Virus record (IMG/VR): IMGVR_UViG_2534681663_000021
Location: 1-11,078 of that record
DNA: 11,078 nucleotides
DNA from: a virus
Taxonomy: Duplodnaviria > Heunggongvirae > Uroviricota > Caudoviricetes
Direction: 5' to 3' (one strand)
Each line of letters opens with the position of its first letter. The stretch's first letter is position 1. The notes below the pieces were generated by a model, which saw only the letters and a program-made list of their open reading frames with translations, had not been told where the DNA came from and did no database searches. The position numbers and the translations under genes were made by a program. Below are positions 1 through 11,078 of the stretch, one piece after another.

Positions 1-1197
1 ATGGCTCTAACCGATATACAAATCAAACGCGCAAAACCACAAGACAAACCATATACAATGAATGATGGGCAAGGCTTGTCATTACTCATCAATCCAGACG
101 GCTCAAAGGGATGGCGATTCCGCTTTCGTTTTGCCGGTAAAGCGCGGTTAATGTCATTTGGTAGTTACGATCTTGTAAGCCTCGCGGAAGCACGTGAGAA
201 ACGCGATACGGCACGTAAACAGGTTGCAAACGGCATTGATCCAGCAGAAGAACGTAAGGCTCAGAAAATTGCTCAGAAATTATCAACTGAAAACTCTTTT
301 GAGGCCGTTAGCAGAGAATGGCATGCAACAAAAGCAGATCGCTGGACTTTAGCTTATCGCGAAGAAATTATTAAAACATTTGAACAGGATGTTTTTCCTT
401 TCATTGGTAAACGGCCAATAGCTGAAATTAAACCCCTAGAACTGCTTGAAGTTCTTAAACGCATAGAAAAACGTGGAGCGTTGGAGAAAACCAGAAAAGT
501 ACGTCAACGATGCGGAGAGGTGTTTCGCTACGCGATCATCACTGGCCGCGCTGAATACAATCCAGCACCTGATTTAGCTATCGCTCTGGCCGTTCCTAAG
601 CAAAAACACCACCCATTTTTATCTGCCGAAGAATTGCCTTATTTTATTCAAGATCTTGAAGCGTATACCGGAAGCATCATCACTAAAAATGCGACAAAAA
701 TAGTCATGTTAACTGGCGTAAGAACTCAGGAAATGCGCTTTGCCACGTGGGATGAAGTTGACCTTGAGAAAGGAATATGGGAGATTCCAGCTGAAAGGAT
801 GAAAATGCGCAGACCTCATATTGTACCTCTATCTACTCAGGTGATTGCCCTTTTTAAACAGCTCAAGCCTATTAGCGGCCATTATCCCTACATTTTTATA
901 GGTAGAAATAATCGTAGTAAACCTATATCTAAAGAAAGTGTGACACAGGTGATTGAGTTATTAGGCTACAAAGGTCGTGCAACAGGTCATGGGTTCAGGC
1001 ATACCATGTCAACCATTTTGCATGAAAAAGGATTCAATAGTGTATGGATTGAAATGCAATTAGCTCATGTAGATAAAAACACAATTCGAGGCACATATAA
1101 CCATGCACAATATTTAGAGAAAAGGAAAGAAATGATGCAATGGTATAGTGATAGATTATATCCGAAAATGAATATGGAGATATATAATGCACTTTAA
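1..1197 (+). CDS. int: P4-family tyrosine integrase (site-specific recombinase)
   Basis: 398-aa ORF starting MALTDIQIKRAKPQDKPY...GSKGWRFRFRFAGK, the N-terminal pattern of P4-type integrases. C-terminal catalytic region has GHGFRHT (HxxR box) and a downstream Tyr (NHAQY). Sits at the element edge, followed by cos, psu, delta, sid as in a P4 prophage. Confidence 0.9.
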   Translation: MALTDIQIKRAKPQDKPYTMNDGQGLSLLINPDGSKGWRFRFRFAGKARLMSFGSYDLVSLAEAREKRDTARKQVANGIDPAEERKAQKIAQKLSTENSFEAVSREWHATKADRWTLAYREEIIKTFEQDVFPFIGKRPIAEIKPLELLEVLKRIEKRGALEKTRKVRQRCGEVFRYAIITGRAEYNPAPDLAIALAVPKQKHHPFLSAEELPYFIQDLEAYTGSIITKNATKIVMLTGVRTQEMRFATWDEVDLEKGIWEIPAERMKMRRPHIVPLSTQVIALFKQLKPISGHYPYIFIGRNNRSKPISKESVTQVIELLGYKGRATGHGFRHTMSTILHEKGFNSVWIEMQLAHVDKNTIRGTYNHAQYLEKRKEMMQWYSDRLYPKMNMEIYNAL

Positions 1198-2351: not shown

Positions 2352-2924
2352 TTACACAGACTGACGTGATGCCAGTTCTGCACTTTTACGCGAAAAAATC
2401 ATGTTCTGCGCAGGGGTGAATTTTTCACGGCTGTCATCCACCGAAGCCGCGTCAGGCCTGAATCCGATGGTCGTTAAAATGTCGCTATCCTGTGCGGAAT
2501 AATTAATTTTTTCACCCTTCGCAAGCCAGGACAGGAGGGCTTCACGCAAAGCATCTGTGGCACGCTGTATGGCACAGTTTCGGGCAATGGCCGTCAGCTC
2601 ACTGTAGCCCATCAGCTCCGGTGCCAGTGCGGCCGCCAGTGCTGTGCCGTGCTGCTGCATAAAATCATTCAGCCGCTCGCGGATGCTGATGTGCTGAACG
2701 GCTTCATGCGAACGAATATAACGACCGGCGGCCTGATTCACCTGCCATTTTCTGACTTCGATAATATTGCGTAATTCGTCCAGGCGGCTGACGTTTCTGC
2801 CTTCTCCTGACAGAAGCCGCAGATATTCCTGTTCGGCCGCTGCCAGCTCATTTTTGCGTTGCAGCCATGCCGCTTTGTTATTCTGGCAGACCTCAAAAGC
2901 CTGCTGTAATGACATTGTGGTCAC
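2352..2924 (-). CDS. psu: Polarity suppression protein Psu (capsid decoration / Rho antagonist)
   Basis: 190-aa ORF, matching P4 Psu in length. Sequence (MTTMSLQQAFEVCQNNKAAWLQRKNELAAAEQEYLRLL...) matches my recollection of P4 Psu. AGGAGA RBS upstream. Last gene of the sid-delta-psu late operon. Confidence 0.85.
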   Translation of the reverse strand: MTTMSLQQAFEVCQNNKAAWLQRKNELAAAEQEYLRLLSGEGRNVSRLDELRNIIEVRKWQVNQAAGRYIRSHEAVQHISIRERLNDFMQQHGTALAAALAPELMGYSELTAIARNCAIQRATDALREALLSWLAKGEKINYSAQDSDILTTIGFRPDAASVDDSREKFTPAQNMIFSRKSAELASRQSV

Positions 2925-4732: not shown

Positions 4733-5328
4733 TGATGCCTGTTCTGCAAAAAGTCCCTTTTTCTGGCTTGCCTTTTTCCGGCATTTGCGGATATAGTTTT
4801 TCCGCTGCCGCAAAATCGGCAGCCGGGCGTGAGAACCCGAGCAATCTAACGGCGACATATGACGCGCCATGCGTCTTTTTTTGTGTCGCAATCAACGCCA
4901 CAGAGCGCCAGATTATGGTGTGGTGTGTGGTCAGTCGTGCAGATGGCATTCCGTGCATCCTGCCCGCGTCCGCTCATTATGCCGCAGAGTCAATGGTAGC
5001 TCAGGCGGGGCAGCCTCCGGGCTGGCCGGTATCCGTTAGAGCCGGTATTCTCACCCCCGTCTGGGCTATCGCCATCGAGCGTGAGAACTCCGGCGATAGC
5101 GTAACCTGCTATCTAACGGAGGCTGCCATCATGGCTACAACCCTTACCACCTCACACCCTGAATTTGTCTTTGTGTTTGCGGCTGTCCGTCGCGCAGACC
5201 GTCATCCCCGTATCTGTATGCTTCGCACCGTCGCCGGTGATGAACGCAGCGCCCGCCGTTCCCTTGTCCGTGACTATGTGCTCTCCCTTGCTGCCCGTCT
5301 GCCGGTGGTGGAGGTGTCCCGTGCGTAA
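4729..5328 (+). CDS. Hypothetical protein (199 codons), alpha-operon gene
   Basis: ATG overlaps the stop of the AlpA-like gene (ATGA coupling), and its stop overlaps the next start. Length matches P4 orf199. GC-rich region, so coding status rests on operon context only. Confidence 0.5.
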
Positions 5329-5608
5329 TAAAAAAGCCCCTCAGACCGTCTCAGCACGTCATGACGCCCGTGAACACCTCAGCATTGAGGCTTACCATAA
5401 GCTCAACCGCGCCAGCGCCGTATCCCGGTTTGTTGGGGGTGATTTGATTCACCGTGAACTCTCCGGCCTGCATCAGCTCTACATTCCGCATATTTTCAGC
5501 TACCTGAATGAAGATATTGATTTTGTGCTGAATGAGCTGAAAGCCAAAGGCCTGTGCCGCGATTTTCTCGCCCAGCAGAAAGACCGGGGAGACAGGACGC
5601 ATGTTTGA
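5321..5608 (+). CDS. Hypothetical 95-aa protein; possibly the epsilon-like (helper prophage derepression) gene
   Basis: GTG start with GGAGG 6 nt upstream; overlaps the preceding ORF's stop by 8 nt and the next ORF's start. The 95-aa length and position before the 151/106-codon ORFs and alpha fit P4 epsilon, but the identity was not verified. Confidence 0.4.
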
Positions 5609-6056
5609 TTTTCCCCAGCCCGGTGAGATTTACCGTTCTGCCGGTTTTCCCGATGTGGCCGTGGTCGGCATTCTGGAAGACGGTATTCCGTGGGAAATGC
5701 CGTACCGCTGCCCGGACATTGTCTGGAATCCGTACCACCGTAAATTCAGTATCCTTGTGCGTATCCTCGCTGACGGGCGCACCACAGACATCCCGCTGGG
5801 GCGTTTTCTGCGGGAATTTACCTGTGACCGTCCTGACCTGTTTAAACGCAGCCCCGTAAACCGGCATGCGGTACTGAAAGAAATGGCCGGAGACCCGGAA
5901 TTACAGAAATGGCGGGAGAAATATCTGGATATTTACCCGCAGGACCCTGTTCCGGTCAGCCGGGCGGCACCGGTGGAGCGGGAATGGCGGGAAATTCCCC
6001 GCACGGAGCCTGACCCGGAAATCACCCCGGATAACAGTTACCGCAATTATCTGTAA
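5601..6056 (+). CDS. Hypothetical protein (151 aa), alpha-operon gene
   Basis: ORF starting [18 protein letters not shown] with a GGGAGA RBS, translationally overlapping the upstream ORF. Length matches P4 orf151. Confidence 0.6.
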   Translation: MFDFPQPGEIYRSAGFPDVAVVGILEDGIPWEMPYRCPDIVWNPYHRKFSILVRILADGRTTDIPLGRFLREFTCDRPDLFKRSPVNRHAVLKEMAGDPELQKWREKYLDIYPQDPVPVSRAAPVEREWREIPRTEPDPEITPDNSYRNYL

Positions 6057-6191
6057 TTAAAAAACGACACCCGAAAAATTAAATGTGCGTATTCGCGCAG
6101 GGATACGCACGTCTTCAGGAGACGCAGATATGCCTTATCAGTTAATGCAACCGGCACGGAATGCAGTCATCTGTCACAGGGAGGAAAACAA

Positions 6192-6512
6192 ATGAAAACA
6201 CCCTTACCGCCCGCCTTACGCGCTGCCCTTTACCGTCGCGCTGTCGCCTGTGCCTGGCTGACCGTGTGCGAACGTCAGCACCGCTACCCGCATCTCACCC
6301 TTGAATCACTGGAGGCGGCCATCGCCGCTGAGCTGGAAGGCTTTTATCTGCGCCAGCACGGTGAGGAAAAAGGGCGCCAGATAGCCTGTGCCCTGCTGGA
6401 AGATTTAATGGAATCCGGCCCCCTGAAGGCCGCGCCGTCGCTGTCCTTTCTCGGGCTGGTTGTGATGGATGAACTCTGTGCCCGTCACATAAAAGCGCCG
6501 GTACTGCACTGA
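6192..6512 (+). CDS. Hypothetical protein (106 aa) immediately upstream of alpha
   Basis: [22 protein letters not shown]... with a GGGAGG RBS 8 nt upstream. Length and position match P4 orf106. Confidence 0.6.
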
Positions 6513-6526
6513 AGGAGAACAACACC

Positions 6527-8860
6527 ATGAAAATGAACGTAACCGCCACCGTCAGCCATGCGCTCGGCCACTGGCCGCGTATTCTCCCGGCGCTGGGGAT
6601 TCAGGTGCTGAAAAACCGTCATCAGCCCTGTCCGGTCTGTGGCGGGAGTGACCGCTTCCGTTTTGATGACAGGGAGGGGCGCGGCACCTGGTACTGCAAT
6701 CAGTGTGGTGCCGGTGACGGCCTGAAACTGGTTGAAAAGGTGTTTGGTGTCTCCCCGTCCGACGCGGCCGCAAAGGTGGCTGCCGTGACCGGCAGTCTGC
6801 CCCCGGCTGACCCGGCAGTGACGGCCGCCGCCGTTGCTGAAACAGACGCTGCCCGGAAGAACGCCGCCGCACTGGCACAAACCCTGATGGCGAAAACCCG
6901 TCCCGGAACCGGTAACGCCTACCTGACCCGCAAGGGCTTTCCCGGCCGGGAATGCCGGATGCTGACCGGCACACACAGAGCCGGTGGCGTGAGCTGGCGC
7001 GCCGGTGACCTTGTGGTGCCACTGTATGACGACAGCGGCGAACTGGTTAACCTTCAGTTAATCAGTGCTGACGGCCGTAAGCGCACCCTGAAAGGCGGAC
7101 AGGTCAGGGGCACCTGTCACACCCTTGAAGGACAGAATCAGGCCGGAAAACGTCTGTGGATAGCGGAGGGATACGCGACCGCACTTACCGTGCATCACCT
7201 GACCGGTGAAACGGTGATGGTGGCGCTTTCTTCCGTGAACCTCCTTTCTCTGGCCAGCCTTGCCCGGCAGAAGCATCCGGCCTGTCAGATTGTCCTTGCC
7301 GCAGACCGTGACCTCAGCGGTGACGGCCAGACAAAAGCCGCCGCAGCCGCAGATGCGTGTGAGGGCGTTGTTGCCCTGCCGCCGGTCTTCGGTGACTGGA
7401 ATGATGCCTTCACGCAGTACGGCGGGGAGGCCACCCGTAAGGCCATTTACGATGCCATCCGGCCACCGGCTGAAAGCCCGTTCGACACCATGAGCGAAGC
7501 AGAGTTTTCCGCCATGAGTACCAGCGAAAAGGCCATGCGTATCTATGAGCATTACGGCGAGGCGCTCGCGGTCGATGCCAACGGCCAGCTTCTGTCCCGC
7601 TATGAAAATGGTGTCTGGAAGGTGCTGCCGCCACAGGACTTTGCCCGGGATGTGGCCGGGCTGTTTCAGCGTCTGCGCGCGCCGTTCTCCTCCGGGAAGG
7701 TGGCCTCCGTGGTGGACACCCTGAAGCTGATTATTCCGCAGCAGGAAGCCCCATCCCGCCGCCTGATTGGCTTTCGTAACGGCGTGCTCGACACGCAGAA
7801 CGGCACGTTCCACCCGCACAGTCCGTCACACTGGATGCGCACCCTGTGCGATGTGGATTTCACCCCGCCGGTGGACGGTGAAACGCTGGAAACCCACGCC
7901 CCCGCGTTCTGGCGCTGGCTTGACCGTGCTGCCGGTGGTCGTGCGGAAAAACGCGACGTGATTCTGGCCGCACTGTTTATGGTGCTGGCAAACCGCTACG
8001 ACTGGCAGCTCTTTCTGGAGGTGACCGGTCCCGGCGGCAGCGGCAAAAGTATCATGGCCGAAATAGCCACCCTGCTGGCCGGGGAGGATAACGCCACGTC
8101 GGCCACCATCGAGACGCTGGAATCCCCGCGTGAACGTGCCGCGTTAACTGGCTTCTCACTGATACGCCTGCCGGACCAGGAAAAATGGAGCGGCGACGGT
8201 GCCGGACTCAAGGCCATCACCGGCGGCGACGCGGTGTCCGTTGACCCGAAATACCGGGATGCGTACTCCACGCATATCCCGGCGGTAATTCTGGCCGTGA
8301 ACAATAACCCGATGCGCTTCACCGACCGCAGCGGCGGCGTGTCACGCCGGCGGGTGATTATTCACTTCCCGGAACAGATAGCCCCGCAGGAGCGCGACCC
8401 GCAGCTTAAGGACAAAATCACCCACGAGCTGGCGGTCATCGTGCGTCACCTGATGCAGAAGTTCAGCGACCCGATGCTCGCCCGGTCACTGCTTCAGTCC
8501 CAGCAGAACTCAGACGAGGCGCTGAACATCAAACGGGATGCCGACCCGACGTTTGATTTTATCGGCTATCTGGAAACCCTGCCGCAGACCAGCGGCATGT
8601 ATATGGGGAACGCCAGTATCATCCCGCGCAATTACCGTAAATACCTCTATCACGCCTATCTGGCCTACATGGAGGCAAACGGCTACCGGAATGTACTCAG
8701 TCTGAAAATGTTCGGACTGGGGCTGCCGGTGATGCTGAAGGAATACGGGCTGAATTACGAGAAGCGCCATACCAAACAGGGGATACAGACCAACCTGACG
8801 CTGAAAGAGGAAAGCTACGGCGACTGGCTGCCAAAATGTGACGACCCTGCAACAGCCTGA
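6527..8860 (+). CDS. alpha: Alpha protein: bifunctional primase-helicase with origin-binding C-terminus
   Basis: 777-aa ORF, matching P4 alpha in length. N-terminal zinc ribbon (CPVCGGSDRF...YCNQCGAGDG), TOPRIM-like acidic motifs (LWIAEGYATA; VLAADRDLSGDG), Walker A P-loop (TGPGGSGKS). AGGAGA RBS. Flanked by the TGTTCACC iterons it should bind. Confidence 0.9.
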   Translation: MKMNVTATVSHALGHWPRILPALGIQVLKNRHQPCPVCGGSDRFRFDDREGRGTWYCNQCGAGDGLKLVEKVFGVSPSDAAAKVAAVTGSLPPADPAVTAAAVAETDAARKNAAALAQTLMAKTRPGTGNAYLTRKGFPGRECRMLTGTHRAGGVSWRAGDLVVPLYDDSGELVNLQLISADGRKRTLKGGQVRGTCHTLEGQNQAGKRLWIAEGYATALTVHHLTGETVMVALSSVNLLSLASLARQKHPACQIVLAADRDLSGDGQTKAAAAADACEGVVALPPVFGDWNDAFTQYGGEATRKAIYDAIRPPAESPFDTMSEAEFSAMSTSEKAMRIYEHYGEALAVDANGQLLSRYENGVWKVLPPQDFARDVAGLFQRLRAPFSSGKVASVVDTLKLIIPQQEAPSRRLIGFRNGVLDTQNGTFHPHSPSHWMRTLCDVDFTPPVDGETLETHAPAFWRWLDRAAGGRAEKRDVILAALFMVLANRYDWQLFLEVTGPGGSGKSIMAEIATLLAGEDNATSATIETLESPRERAALTGFSLIRLPDQEKWSGDGAGLKAITGGDAVSVDPKYRDAYSTHIPAVILAVNNNPMRFTDRSGGVSRRRVIIHFPEQIAPQERDPQLKDKITHELAVIVRHLMQKFSDPMLARSLLQSQQNSDEALNIKRDADPTFDFIGYLETLPQTSGMYMGNASIIPRNYRKYLYHAYLAYMEANGYRNVLSLKMFGLGLPVMLKEYGLNYEKRHTKQGIQTNLTLKEESYGDWLPKCDDPATA

Positions 8861-8867
8861 CCCACCT

Positions 8868-8892
8868 GACCGGCATCTGCCGGTCTTTTTTT
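8868..8892 (+). terminator. Rho-independent terminator downstream of alpha
   Basis: GACCGGCA-TC-TGCCGGTC hairpin at 8868-8885 followed by seven T (8886-8892), eight bases after the alpha stop codon. Confidence 0.7.
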
Positions 8893-8910
8893 ATCCCTGA
8901 ATTCCCCGAA

Positions 8911-9002
8911 GGTGAACAATCCACTGTTCACCCTTCACCGTATATTAACCCGTTATCACACTGAAATTAAAAGAGAAAAATGAAAGGTGAACAGTGTGAA
9001 CA
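8911..9002. repeat. crr-like (cis replication region) iteron cluster
   Basis: GGTGAACA at 8911-8918 and 8986-8993, TGTTCACC at 8925-8932, degenerate TGTGAACA at 8995-9002. Same octamer as the ori cluster, located just 3' of alpha as in P4. Confidence 0.7.
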
Positions 9003-9271
9003 ATCAAATCAAAAAAACTTTCTACTCCCACTATAGCCTGACTGGTCGTCTCCAAAACGAGCGGAAAAGCATCAACAATGAATAGTTAACTGTTAACTCC
9101 GCGCCAACTCATTACCACTTAACTCAATGATATTAAATGGAAAACTATCGAAATGAATACTCTGCAAAATTAAATGCAAAAAAATATATGCCAGTCAAAT
9201 TTCGTTACGCACTCTCTTCCAAGAAAGAGATAAATGCTTTATACGTCCACCATACTATGTTATTTTTTTAA

Positions 9272-9412
9272 TACGGCTCTGCCTTAAATCTGTGAGGTTG
9301 TTTCGCCTCGAAGTATCTTATGTTAGCACATCACGCTACCAATCAGCGGTTAGTTACTTGACGTAACTGTTAATTGGCTAAAGTTTGCATAGAGTGATTG
9401 GGCGGAGCCGTA
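9272..9412 (+). ncRNA. Candidate retron msr/msd non-coding RNA, bounded by an a1/a2-like inverted repeat
   Basis: 12-bp inverted repeat with one mismatch: TACGGCTCTGCC (9272-9283) and GGCGGAGCCGTA (9401-9412), ending 35 nt before the RT start codon. Internal hairpins at TGAGG...CCTCG and AGTTAC-TTGAC-GTAACT. Spacing and position resemble retron ncRNAs; nothing else supports it. Confidence 0.25.
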
Positions 9413-9446
9413 AATTTAGTCCATAAATACAGTAACGAGGTAGAGA

Positions 9447-11078
9447 GTGTCTTTACATGACAAGCTACTGATGCTTAGTCTCAATTCGGCGAATAAAGAA
9501 GAAGATGAGACAATCCCGGAGTTACCTAAGTTAGAGCCTCAGCCCTATCAAGCTGGAAATAAGTTGAAATGGGATAATAAAGAGCTGAAAAATCAGCCCA
9601 TCACTTCAAAGAATGACATTAATGTAATATGCAAAAAAATTGAAAACAAAAGCATTGTAATTACATCAGCAAACGATGTAGCCAATCTGTTAGAAGTCCC
9701 GGTCGGACAATTATTATTTATTTTATATAATAAAAAAGATAACTATAGAACTTTTGAAATAAAAAAGAAAAATGGAAAAAGTAGAATCATAAATGCACCT
9801 CAAGGCGGTTTATCAATTCTGCAAGAGAAATTAAAGCCAGTTCTTGAGTACTTTTATCGTCCCAAAAAACCAGCACATGGATTTATTAAGGATAAAAGTA
9901 TATTAACAAATGCAGAAAAACATACAAAGAAAAAATATGTTGTTAATGTAGATTTAGAAAATTATTTTGGTTCAGTCACTTTCGCTAGAGTATATGGGAT
10001 ATTTAAAAGTAAGCCATTTAATTTCTCTCATCCTGCGGCGAGTATATTAGCTCAACTATGTACTAAGGATGGAAAATTACCTCAAGGAGCATGTACCTCC
10101 CCTGTTCTAGCAAATTTAGCATCAGCCTCACTCGATAAACACCTAACCCAACTGGCACGTAGAAAAAACATCACATATACAAGATATGCAGATGATATTA
10201 CTTTTTCATTTAATCAACGACAAGTCAGAGAAATCATAACGCTAGATAATGAAAATAATTTTGAATTGGGCGAGGCGATTATCTCTGTGATAGAGAAAAG
10301 TGGCTTCAGCATAAACACAAGTAAATTCAGAGTTCAGAAAAGAAATGAACGTCAAAAAGTTACTGGTCTAGTGGTAAATGAAAAAGTAAATGTTGAGCGT
10401 AAATATCTTAGAGTTACTCGTTCATTAGTTCATAAATGGAGAGAAGACAAGTTAACATCAGCATTGTTGTTTGTTACTAAAAAAGGTTTTAAGGCAACAA
10501 ATAACGAACATGCTATATCAATTTTTCGCAATCATATTTATGGGCGATTGAGTTTTATAAAAATGATCCGTGGTGAGGACTTCCCGTTATATCTTAAATT
10601 AATGGCTGAAATGAGTCATCATGATCCTTTAAAAACAAAAGAAGGGCTTAGAGCAATGAAAGAAACTGAAACTTACGATGTATTTATTTGTCATGCAAGC
10701 GAAGATAAAACATCCATCGCAATTCCAATTTACGAAGAATTAATTAAATTAAATATATCAACATTCATAGATCATGTTGAAATAAATTGGGGCGATTCAT
10801 TAATCCAAAAAATTAACTCAGCTCTTGTAAAGTCTAAATATGTAATTGCCATTCTTTCGGCTAATTCTGTAGATAAACATTGGCCTAAGAAAGAATTGCA
10901 TTCTGTGCTTGCAAGAGAAATCACTGAAGGTGAAGTAAAATTACTTACTCTTGTAAAAGAAGCAGATGAAGCAATAGTTGCTGAATCTTTGCCGCTCTTA
11001 AGTGATAAGCTTTATATGACCTATAAAGATAATCCGGCAGAAGTTGCAGATAAGGTTCGTGCGCTTTTAAACAAGTGA
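9447..11078 (+). CDS. Reverse transcriptase (retron-type motifs) fused to a C-terminal TIR domain
   Basis: 543-aa AT-rich ORF. RT motifs: NAEKH (NAxxH) followed by YVVNVDLENYFGSV, LPQGACTSPVLANL, RYADDITF (YxDD), KVTGLVVNE (VTG). C-terminal ~130 aa: YDVFICHASEDK...YVIAILSANSVDKHWPKKELHSVLA, a TIR-domain signature that includes the candidate catalytic Glu in KKEL. Confidence 0.85.
   Translation: MSLHDKLLMLSLNSANKEEDETIPELPKLEPQPYQAGNKLKWDNKELKNQPITSKNDINVICKKIENKSIVITSANDVANLLEVPVGQLLFILYNKKDNYRTFEIKKKNGKSRIINAPQGGLSILQEKLKPVLEYFYRPKKPAHGFIKDKSILTNAEKHTKKKYVVNVDLENYFGSVTFARVYGIFKSKPFNFSHPAASILAQLCTKDGKLPQGACTSPVLANLASASLDKHLTQLARRKNITYTRYADDITFSFNQRQVREIITLDNENNFELGEAIISVIEKSGFSINTSKFRVQKRNERQKVTGLVVNEKVNVERKYLRVTRSLVHKWREDKLTSALLFVTKKGFKATNNEHAISIFRNHIYGRLSFIKMIRGEDFPLYLKLMAEMSHHDPLKTKEGLRAMKETETYDVFICHASEDKTSIAIPIYEELIKLNISTFIDHVEINWGDSLIQKINSALVKSKYVIAILSANSVDKHWPKKELHSVLAREITEGEVKLLTLVKEADEAIVAESLPLLSDKLYMTYKDNPAEVADKVRALLNK

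Follow-up and report, generated by a model that had tools for sequence, protein, structure and literature searches.

The 11,078-nucleotide stretch of DNA analyzed here (the window) is a P4-like satellite prophage that carries a retron as cargo at its end; its features are collected in Table 1, and the P4-type immunity RNAs among them are consistent with a satellite of this type. From 8861 to 11078 the window is 100% identical to E. coli O139:H1 W13-16, in which the island adjoins tRNA-Sec and RT-TIR is the last gene; PGAP names this identical gene 'TIR domain-containing anti-phage reverse transcriptase' and annotates no RNA feature upstream of it. Homology to the satellite backbone, which is common to ~1,000 E. 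coli genomes, stops near 9029. The non-coding gap before the RT-TIR gene, taken as 440 bp in an earlier note on this DNA, in fact measures 586 bp (8861–9446), the first ~170 bp being P4-satellite backbone.

Table 1. Features of the window, with positions, strand and basis of assignment.
Feature	Position	Strand	Basis or remark
Integrase	1–1197		
Psu	2352–2924	-	
C4 antisense RNA, its a1/b1 target and isrK	4791–5076		Rfam; P4-type immunity RNAs
Primase-helicase, 777 aa	6527–8860		
Terminator-like hairpin closing the primase gene	8868–8885		
Putative -10 element TATGTT	9256–9261	+	Recurrence upstream of a1 in homologues
a1, 5′ arm of closing stem	9272–9284 (conserved core 9274–9284)	+	Repeat, fold, covariation
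UUAAAU directly 3′ of a1	9284–9289	+	Invariant in 16/16 homologues
msr hairpin, stem 9294–9298/9305–9309, loop UGUUUC	9294–9309	+	Covariation
Conserved box AAUGUUAGCACAUCACGC, holding the RT-DNA stop site	9319–9336	+	Invariant columns
msd template, ~75-nt RT-DNA being its complement	9322–9396	+	Published RT-DNA of 97%-identical ncRNA
Stem-loop inside msd (RNA level), 38 nt	9339–9376	+	MFE fold
Invariant GUGAUUGG, 5′ of and overlapping a2	9394–9401	+	15/16 close homologues
a2, 3′ arm of closing stem	9400–9412 (conserved core 9400–9410)	+	Repeat, fold, covariation
RBS-like GAGG	9438–9441		
RT-TIR gene, 543 aa, retron reverse transcriptase fused to TIR effector	9447–11078	+	GTG start

Several further observations concern the satellite itself. 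In its W13-16 copy, an IS66 element is inserted between the sid-like gene and the immunity region (L001 positions 4796–7384), and the distance from the start of the integrase to the end of RT-TIR is ~13.8 kb, against 11.1 kb in the window; from this shorter span, the window seems to derive from a carrier without the IS66 insertion. Just after the primase gene and its terminator, at 8909–9003, lie several copies of GGTGAACA and TGTTCACC in both orientations; the latter is the P4 alpha-protein iteron of ori/crr, and the repeats are probably the crr-like replication region of the satellite. Between integrase and psu, an interval known as the P4 defense hotspot, a 318-aa ORF (1187–2143) has no Pfam match; the identical gene in W13-16 is a HEPN domain protein according to PGAP, and the ORF may be a second defense cargo of the same satellite. 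A 44-aa ORF at 9137–9271, the stop codon of which abuts a1, has no homologue in any other RT-TIR locus and is probably spurious.

The best PADLOC match of the ORF at 9447–11078 is RT-TIR_XII (E = 2e-192, residues 67–542), followed by RT-Protease_XI and RT-Toprim_I-C (E = 4e-102 for the RT-Toprim_I-C models), and Pfam recognizes RVT_1 at residues 105–308 and TIR_2 at residues 412–540 (E = 7e-17). The motifs of retron reverse transcriptases, NAxxH (as NAEKH, N155 to H159), YADD (247–250) and VTG (305–307), are invariant across 24 family members; in the TIR domain, E483 (in WPKKE) is the candidate catalytic glutamate. By these matches the ORF is a type XII retron RT-TIR fusion, an architecture defined by Mestre et al. 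2020 (PMC7736814); in the account of Gao 2020 given in that paper, Retron-TIR (type XII) acts in anti-phage defense and needs the fused domain. RT-TIR retrons of 53–66% identity are found repeatedly just after P4-type primase-helicase genes (loci L175, L177, L178, L179 and L180), and other RT-TIR loci (L181, L090, L183), as well as the Ec67 retron, follow a P2 gpA/DinI-like gene. Retrons of clade 8, the Mestre clade to which the window RT belongs, appear to be exchangeable cargo at two fixed phage/satellite positions.

The earlier note had proposed a retron msr/msd RNA in the gap before this gene, bounded by a 12-bp inverted repeat with one mismatch. The arms, TACGGCTCTGCC (9272–9283) and GGCGGAGCCGTA (9401–9412), are exactly where it placed them; they are 12 nt each, 92% complementary and 117 nt apart, and at the sole mismatch T9280 faces G9404, which makes a G·U wobble (U9280·G9404) in RNA of the + strand. 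The repeat does lie shortly before the RT gene on the same (+) strand, with two corrections to the earlier description: a2 ends 34 nt, not 35, before the start codon, and that codon is the GTG at 9447 rather than an ATG, the first in-frame ATG of the ORF being at 9471. The minimum free energy (MFE) fold lengthens the closing helix to 13 bp (9272–9284/9400–9412) and contains the internal hairpins that had been described between the arms, a small one at 9294–9309 and a longer one at 9339–9376. As RNA, 9268–9416 folds with −50.8 kcal/mol (z = −4.0). The caution that such a repeat is only modestly unlikely by chance was well placed: in 20% of shuffles of 8861–9446 there is an inverted repeat 12 nt or longer with no more than one mismatch, and the same gap holds several other inverted repeats of 11–16 nt. 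On its own the repeat is weak evidence and not significant; the significance of the stem comes from the fold and from covariation across homologues.

Homologues were collected by several routes. Sensitive BLASTN against E. coli genomes returned 14 full copies and, in ~90 genomes, a match to 9272–9413 only, at 76% identity. This shorter match lies directly before the RT-TIR gene of a second lineage (68% protein identity), which resides in a P2-like prophage; there the DNA is conserved exactly from a1 to a2 and the flanks are unalignable. RT-TIR loci came from a scan of viral contigs, from a metagenome scan with a TIR-only alignment and from exact-protein look-ups; a scan of genome contigs with the full RT-TIR alignment was swamped by generic YxDD matches and yielded only 7 true RT-TIR loci, and a search of a phage collection gave no match. 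The set used for covariation comprises 16 non-redundant upstream regions, alignable from a1 to a2, with RT identities of 52–81%.

In this alignment, 91.8% of cells are paired and 12 pairs show compensatory changes, values reached by none of 500 shuffles (slid controls were 35–50% paired). The core of a1/a2 (11 bp, 9274–9284/9400–9410) carries compensatory changes at 8 of the 13 stem pairs, as illustrated by the variant arm pairs GGCTCTGCC/GGCAGAGCC, GGCTTCGTC/GACGAAGCC, GGCTCCACC/GGTGGAGCC and GGTTCCACC/GGTGGAACC; the outermost pairs (9272–9273/9411–9412) are not conserved and are unpaired in 6–8 of the 16 homologues. The G·U pairs U9280·G9404 and U9284·G9400 fit the + strand only, and a covariance model of the family (model R1) scores the window at 139 bits on the + strand versus 10 bits on the − strand. 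A second helix (9289–9293/9389–9393) is 83.8% paired with 2 compensatory pairs; one of its pairs, 21–137, is broken in 8 of the 16 sequences, and the covariation supports this helix only partly. An alternative AAU/AUU extension of the stem does not vary in the alignment, and hence gives no covariation signal either way.

Beyond the close set, R1 also detects this RNA before RT-TIR genes whose identity is only 40–48%, with E values from 1e-10 to ~0.04: three loci (L002, L094, L095) at 1e-10 to 3e-8 and four (L098, L101, L097, L152) at 0.0015–0.04 in one search and 0.0012–0.031 in another. The placement, upstream of RT-TIR and on the same strand, is the same in the 16 close and ~9 distant loci. 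Thus the covariance-model check suggested in the earlier note came out in favor of the RNA, and where that note had held that the lack of a conserved fold, or of the repeat upstream of orthologous genes, would speak against it, the stem is kept and covaries in 16 loci. The search with existing retron ncRNA models that it also suggested was unproductive: Rfam returned no retron family, either at the gathering threshold or at E values up to 10, a miss that counts little because clade 8 ncRNAs fall outside the Rfam model. Together, the analyses of the fold and of the homologues show directly where the RNA lies, on which strand, how it folds and how far it is conserved.

The comparisons also resolve the parts of the RNA. 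In most of the 16 loci, a1 is preceded at a distance of ~10 nt by a TATG(A/G/T)T-like hexamer, the other upstream sequence being unconserved; in the window it would place the 5′ end of the ncRNA at a putative ~9268–9270; a promoter scan with the sigma-70 consensus found no site. In the msr hairpin, 98.8% of cells are paired with 2 compensatory pairs (GAGG/CCTC to AAAG/CTTT), the loop is invariant and the core GUUGUUUCGC is invariant or nearly so; this hairpin is probably the element recognized by the RT. A possible second small hairpin, 9324–9338, appears in the single-sequence fold only. Downstream, the AAUGUUAGCACAUCACGC box has invariant columns at A9320, G9322, G9326, A9328, A9333, G9335 and C9336. 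The msd stem-loop region, by comparison, is variable and unalignable across homologues, which fold differently there. The hairpin 9339–9376 is stable as RNA via several G·U pairs, and the DNA copy of the msd folds weakly (z = −0.6), no better than shuffles; selection may act on the RNA template, or the msDNA, instead of forming a hairpin, may base-pair across subunits in the manner of the three-way junction of Eco2. In Khan Table S1 (PMC10849725), the human donor insertion site 72;102 corresponds to this hairpin. Finally, UUAAAU and GUGAUUGG are single-stranded boxes that hardly vary; GUGAUUGG is replaced by GTGATTAG in one close homologue (L175) and is found in Pseudoalteromonas-type loci as well.

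The ends of the template are given by a published relative. Mestre et al. 2020 (PMC7736814) derived a single consensus ncRNA for clade 8, with some sub-branches lacking one, and Khan et al. 2024 (bioRxiv 10.1101/2024.01.25.577267, PMC10849725) synthesized and tested two type XII retrons. One of these, Mestre-1156 ('Terminal 1156', Salmonella Muenster str. 0315), has an ncRNA of the same length that differs from 9272–9412 at 4 of 141 positions (97% identity); the a1/a2 arms are the same, and the differences, at 9327, 9367, 9371 and 9392, fall in the variable template region. Its RT-DNA was sequenced at 76 nt and obtained in low yield, 0.025× Eco1 by PAGE (Khan et al. 2024, PMC10849725, supplementary file 3). 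Aligned to the window, it matches the complement of 9322–9396 and both of its ends fall on invariant bases: the first templated base is G9396 (the RT-DNA 5′ end CAC... is the complement of ...GUG9396), and the last is G9322, in an AAUG-like motif that reads CUUAUG in the window and CUAAUG in most homologues. RT-DNA synthesis and its ends have been shown in the literature for this 97%-identical RNA; by analogy, the msDNA of the present locus is predicted to begin 5′-CACTCTATGC... and to end opposite G9322.

Two readings would deny the RNA this role. Were the inverted repeat a chance match in an AT-rich intergenic region, without function, the frequency of equally good repeats in shuffled sequence and the several others in the gap would be expected; that reading, to which we attach virtually no weight, is refuted by the covariation and by the RT-DNA published for a near-identical sequence, and it is further opposed by the confinement of conservation to a1 through a2 and by the model matches upstream of distant RT-TIR genes. 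Alternatively, the structure could be a cis-regulatory mRNA leader only, acting on translation or stability and not reverse transcribed in the native host, as its place in the 5′ UTR close to the start codon, the very low heterologous yield of RT-DNA and the absence of a canonical branching G might suggest. Against a leader of this kind, which we regard as very improbable, the Salmonella copy yielded sequenced RT-DNA with defined ends on the invariant G9396 and G9322, the stop motif matches that of Eco2, the catalytic YADD is invariant and the architecture is homologous to that of the Ec67-type ncRNAs.

The msr/msd reading is instead borne out by the RT-TIR_XII gene, the covariation, the covariance-model matches and the published 97%-identical ncRNA with its RT-DNA: 9272–9412 (+) is, with high confidence, the msr-msd ncRNA of a type XII (RT-TIR) retron that a P4-like satellite prophage carries at its end as cargo. 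The points counted against it are the lack of an Rfam match and of a sigma-70 site, the low RT-DNA yield of the Salmonella copy, the missing branching G and the unconserved msd stem-loop. The element is already known, having been catalogued and RT-DNA-validated as the near-identical Salmonella copy, and the window holds another copy. As the correct ncRNA annotation of a catalogued defense system, the finding matters little; PGAP-style annotation misses this ncRNA, and the covariance model together with the invariant boxes UUAAAU and GUGAUUGG are reliable locators of RT-TIR retron ncRNAs. Judged from the alignments, its only potentially novel aspect is the missing branching G.

In every characterized retron, the branching G lies just 3′ of a1 (Khan et al. 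2024, main text, PMC10849725). The earlier note could not identify one, and we likewise find that no G is conserved at the canonical position or close to it: between a1 and the msr hairpin, no position holds a conserved G across the 16 homologues, and the first G downstream of a1 varies in position and is a paired hairpin base in many members. Where Ec67 and Ec86 have their branching G, the homologous nucleotide of the window is A9287, which is invariant within UUAAAU. Here the junction aligns base for base with that of I-C retrons (GCA-G-AUUU versus UUA-A-AUYU); the R1 alignment puts G15 of Eco2 at A9286, one position from A9287. In the Pseudoalteromonas group, the U9285·U9399 mismatch is replaced by an A-U pair and U9284·G9400 by C-G, changes that support the register placing A9287 after the last pair. 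The distant locus L101 has a G at the position equivalent to A9287 (CUUUG).

The same junction was read from the ncRNA/RT-DNA pairs in the supplement of Khan et al. by a rule of geometry, in which a1/a2 is extended to the mapped first templated base and the next nucleotide of the 5′ strand is taken. The rule returns G, with a 1–2-nt spacer, for Eco1, Eco2 and four Eco2-like I-C retrons, and A for 1156 (standing in for the window), 1190 and 1278; manual extension gives A for P. aeruginosa 1195, and the result is unclear for several type XI retrons. For one further retron, 1235 (type XI; Khan et al. 2024, supplementary file 3), the listed RT-DNA starts within the a2 complement (CCATTCA...). The canonical geometry is hence not universal among the clade 8 entries of that data set, and priming sites should be deduced from it with caution. 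Individual guanosines of the window were considered in turn as the branch. G9281 is an A in 3 of the 16 sequences and falls within pairs that covary; neither G9292 nor G9294 is conserved; and the invariant G9297, G9300 and G9305 are part of the hairpin, which does not contain the branch in Eco2. Hence none of them qualifies. Literature searches turned up neither a mechanistic study of type XII retrons nor any report of a branch at a nucleotide other than G.

That the family uses either an adenosine branch or a non-conserved G is offered as a lead, not a result; within this clade, branch points have been mapped in Eco2 alone. We consider it somewhat better than an even chance that these are canonical retrons priming on a G elsewhere, at a flexible position (G9292 or G9294 in the window, the first G of the hairpin stem in others). 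Every biochemically characterized msDNA branches from G, both guanosines lie within 8–10 nt of a1, and the weak helix 9289–9293/9389–9393, which shows some covariation, would put G9294 at its end. Against this, both positions are U in locus L174 and read U and A in L178 and loci like it; G9294 forms a base pair within the covarying hairpin; and helix 2, apart from its frequently broken pair, ends 8 nt inside the template rather than at the RT-DNA start, G9396. The other, more doubtful possibility is that the msDNA of the enterobacterial type XII family is primed from the 2′-OH of an adenosine, A9287; this may also apply to the clade 8 retrons with UUUA-AC after a1 (P. aeruginosa XII-1195, XI-1278 and 1190). 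A9287 is the candidate because it aligns with the Ec67-type branching G and directly follows the last a1/a2 pair, with a 0–1-nt spacer before the first templated base. Adenosine priming, if true, would break the 'branching G' rule of retrons for the first time, would change the rule for retron ncRNA prediction and the engineering of retron editors, and would bear on primer selection by clade 8 RTs.

Taken with what is known of other retrons, these data suggest how the system may work. The ncRNA and RT-TIR are presumably co-transcribed, from a promoter that would lie just upstream of a1. In the transcript, a1 (9274–9284) would pair with a2 (9400–9410), enclosing the msr hairpin and the variable template; the RT would bind this fold and prime on the 2′-OH of a nucleotide in the invariant UUAAAU beside the stem, copying the template from G9396 back to ~G9322 into an msDNA of ~75 nt. 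By analogy with other retrons, Eco2 among them, the RT-msDNA complex would keep the fused TIR, a probable NAD+ hydrolase, inactive until it is perturbed by a phage, and the released TIR would, as bacterial TIR domains suggest, deplete NAD+ and abort the infection.

Among known systems, the closest is Mestre-1156, with an RT of the same class (clade 8, type XII); its host is Salmonella enterica serovar Muenster, whereas the retron of the window is hosted by E. coli and lies in a P4-like satellite at tRNA-Sec. The likeness to Mestre-1156 is drawn from the ncRNA; the closest Salmonella RT cluster found, P0001, is 96% identical to the window RT. Mestre-1195 of Pseudomonas aeruginosa, also a type XII RT-TIR retron with validated RT-DNA (0.29× Eco1; Khan et al. 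2024), is very divergent in sequence, with UUUAAC after a1 where the window has UUAAAU and with the loop CUAC. In a manual reading, its junction has the same geometry as that of the window, with a U·U mismatch, then one more pair and then an A opposite a spacer of 1 nt that precedes the first templated base; a G (CAAG) lies 5 nt upstream, inside the stem. Relatives of its ncRNA, at L097 and L170, were found by model R1. Retron-TIR of Gao et al. 2020 shares the domain architecture and is likewise assigned to type XII, a likeness taken from its description by Mestre et al. 2020.

Retron-Eco2 (Ec67; type I-C1, RT-Toprim) belongs to the same RT clade as the window (Mestre clade 8) and shares the plan of its ncRNA: a1, 1–4 nt, AUUUGU/AUCUGU, a hairpin with a UG..UCG loop, a UAAUG-type stop, the template and a2. 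The Ec67 loop, UGAAUCG, is similar to UGUUUC in the window, and termination of Eco2 at G52 in UUAAUG (PMC12916289) is paralleled by the stop at G9322 in an AAUG-like motif. A search for sequence homology with the type XII model did place the Ec67 ncRNA as top match, but at 8.8 bits (E = 0.24) this is too weak to count. The two differ in effector, Toprim in Eco2 and TIR in the window, and at the junction, where the G15 branch of Eco2 directly follows a1 (GGCA-G-AUUU) and the window reads UUA-A-AUCU. Both reside in phage or satellite hotspots, Ec67 after P2 gpA/DinI, like the second RT-TIR lineage.
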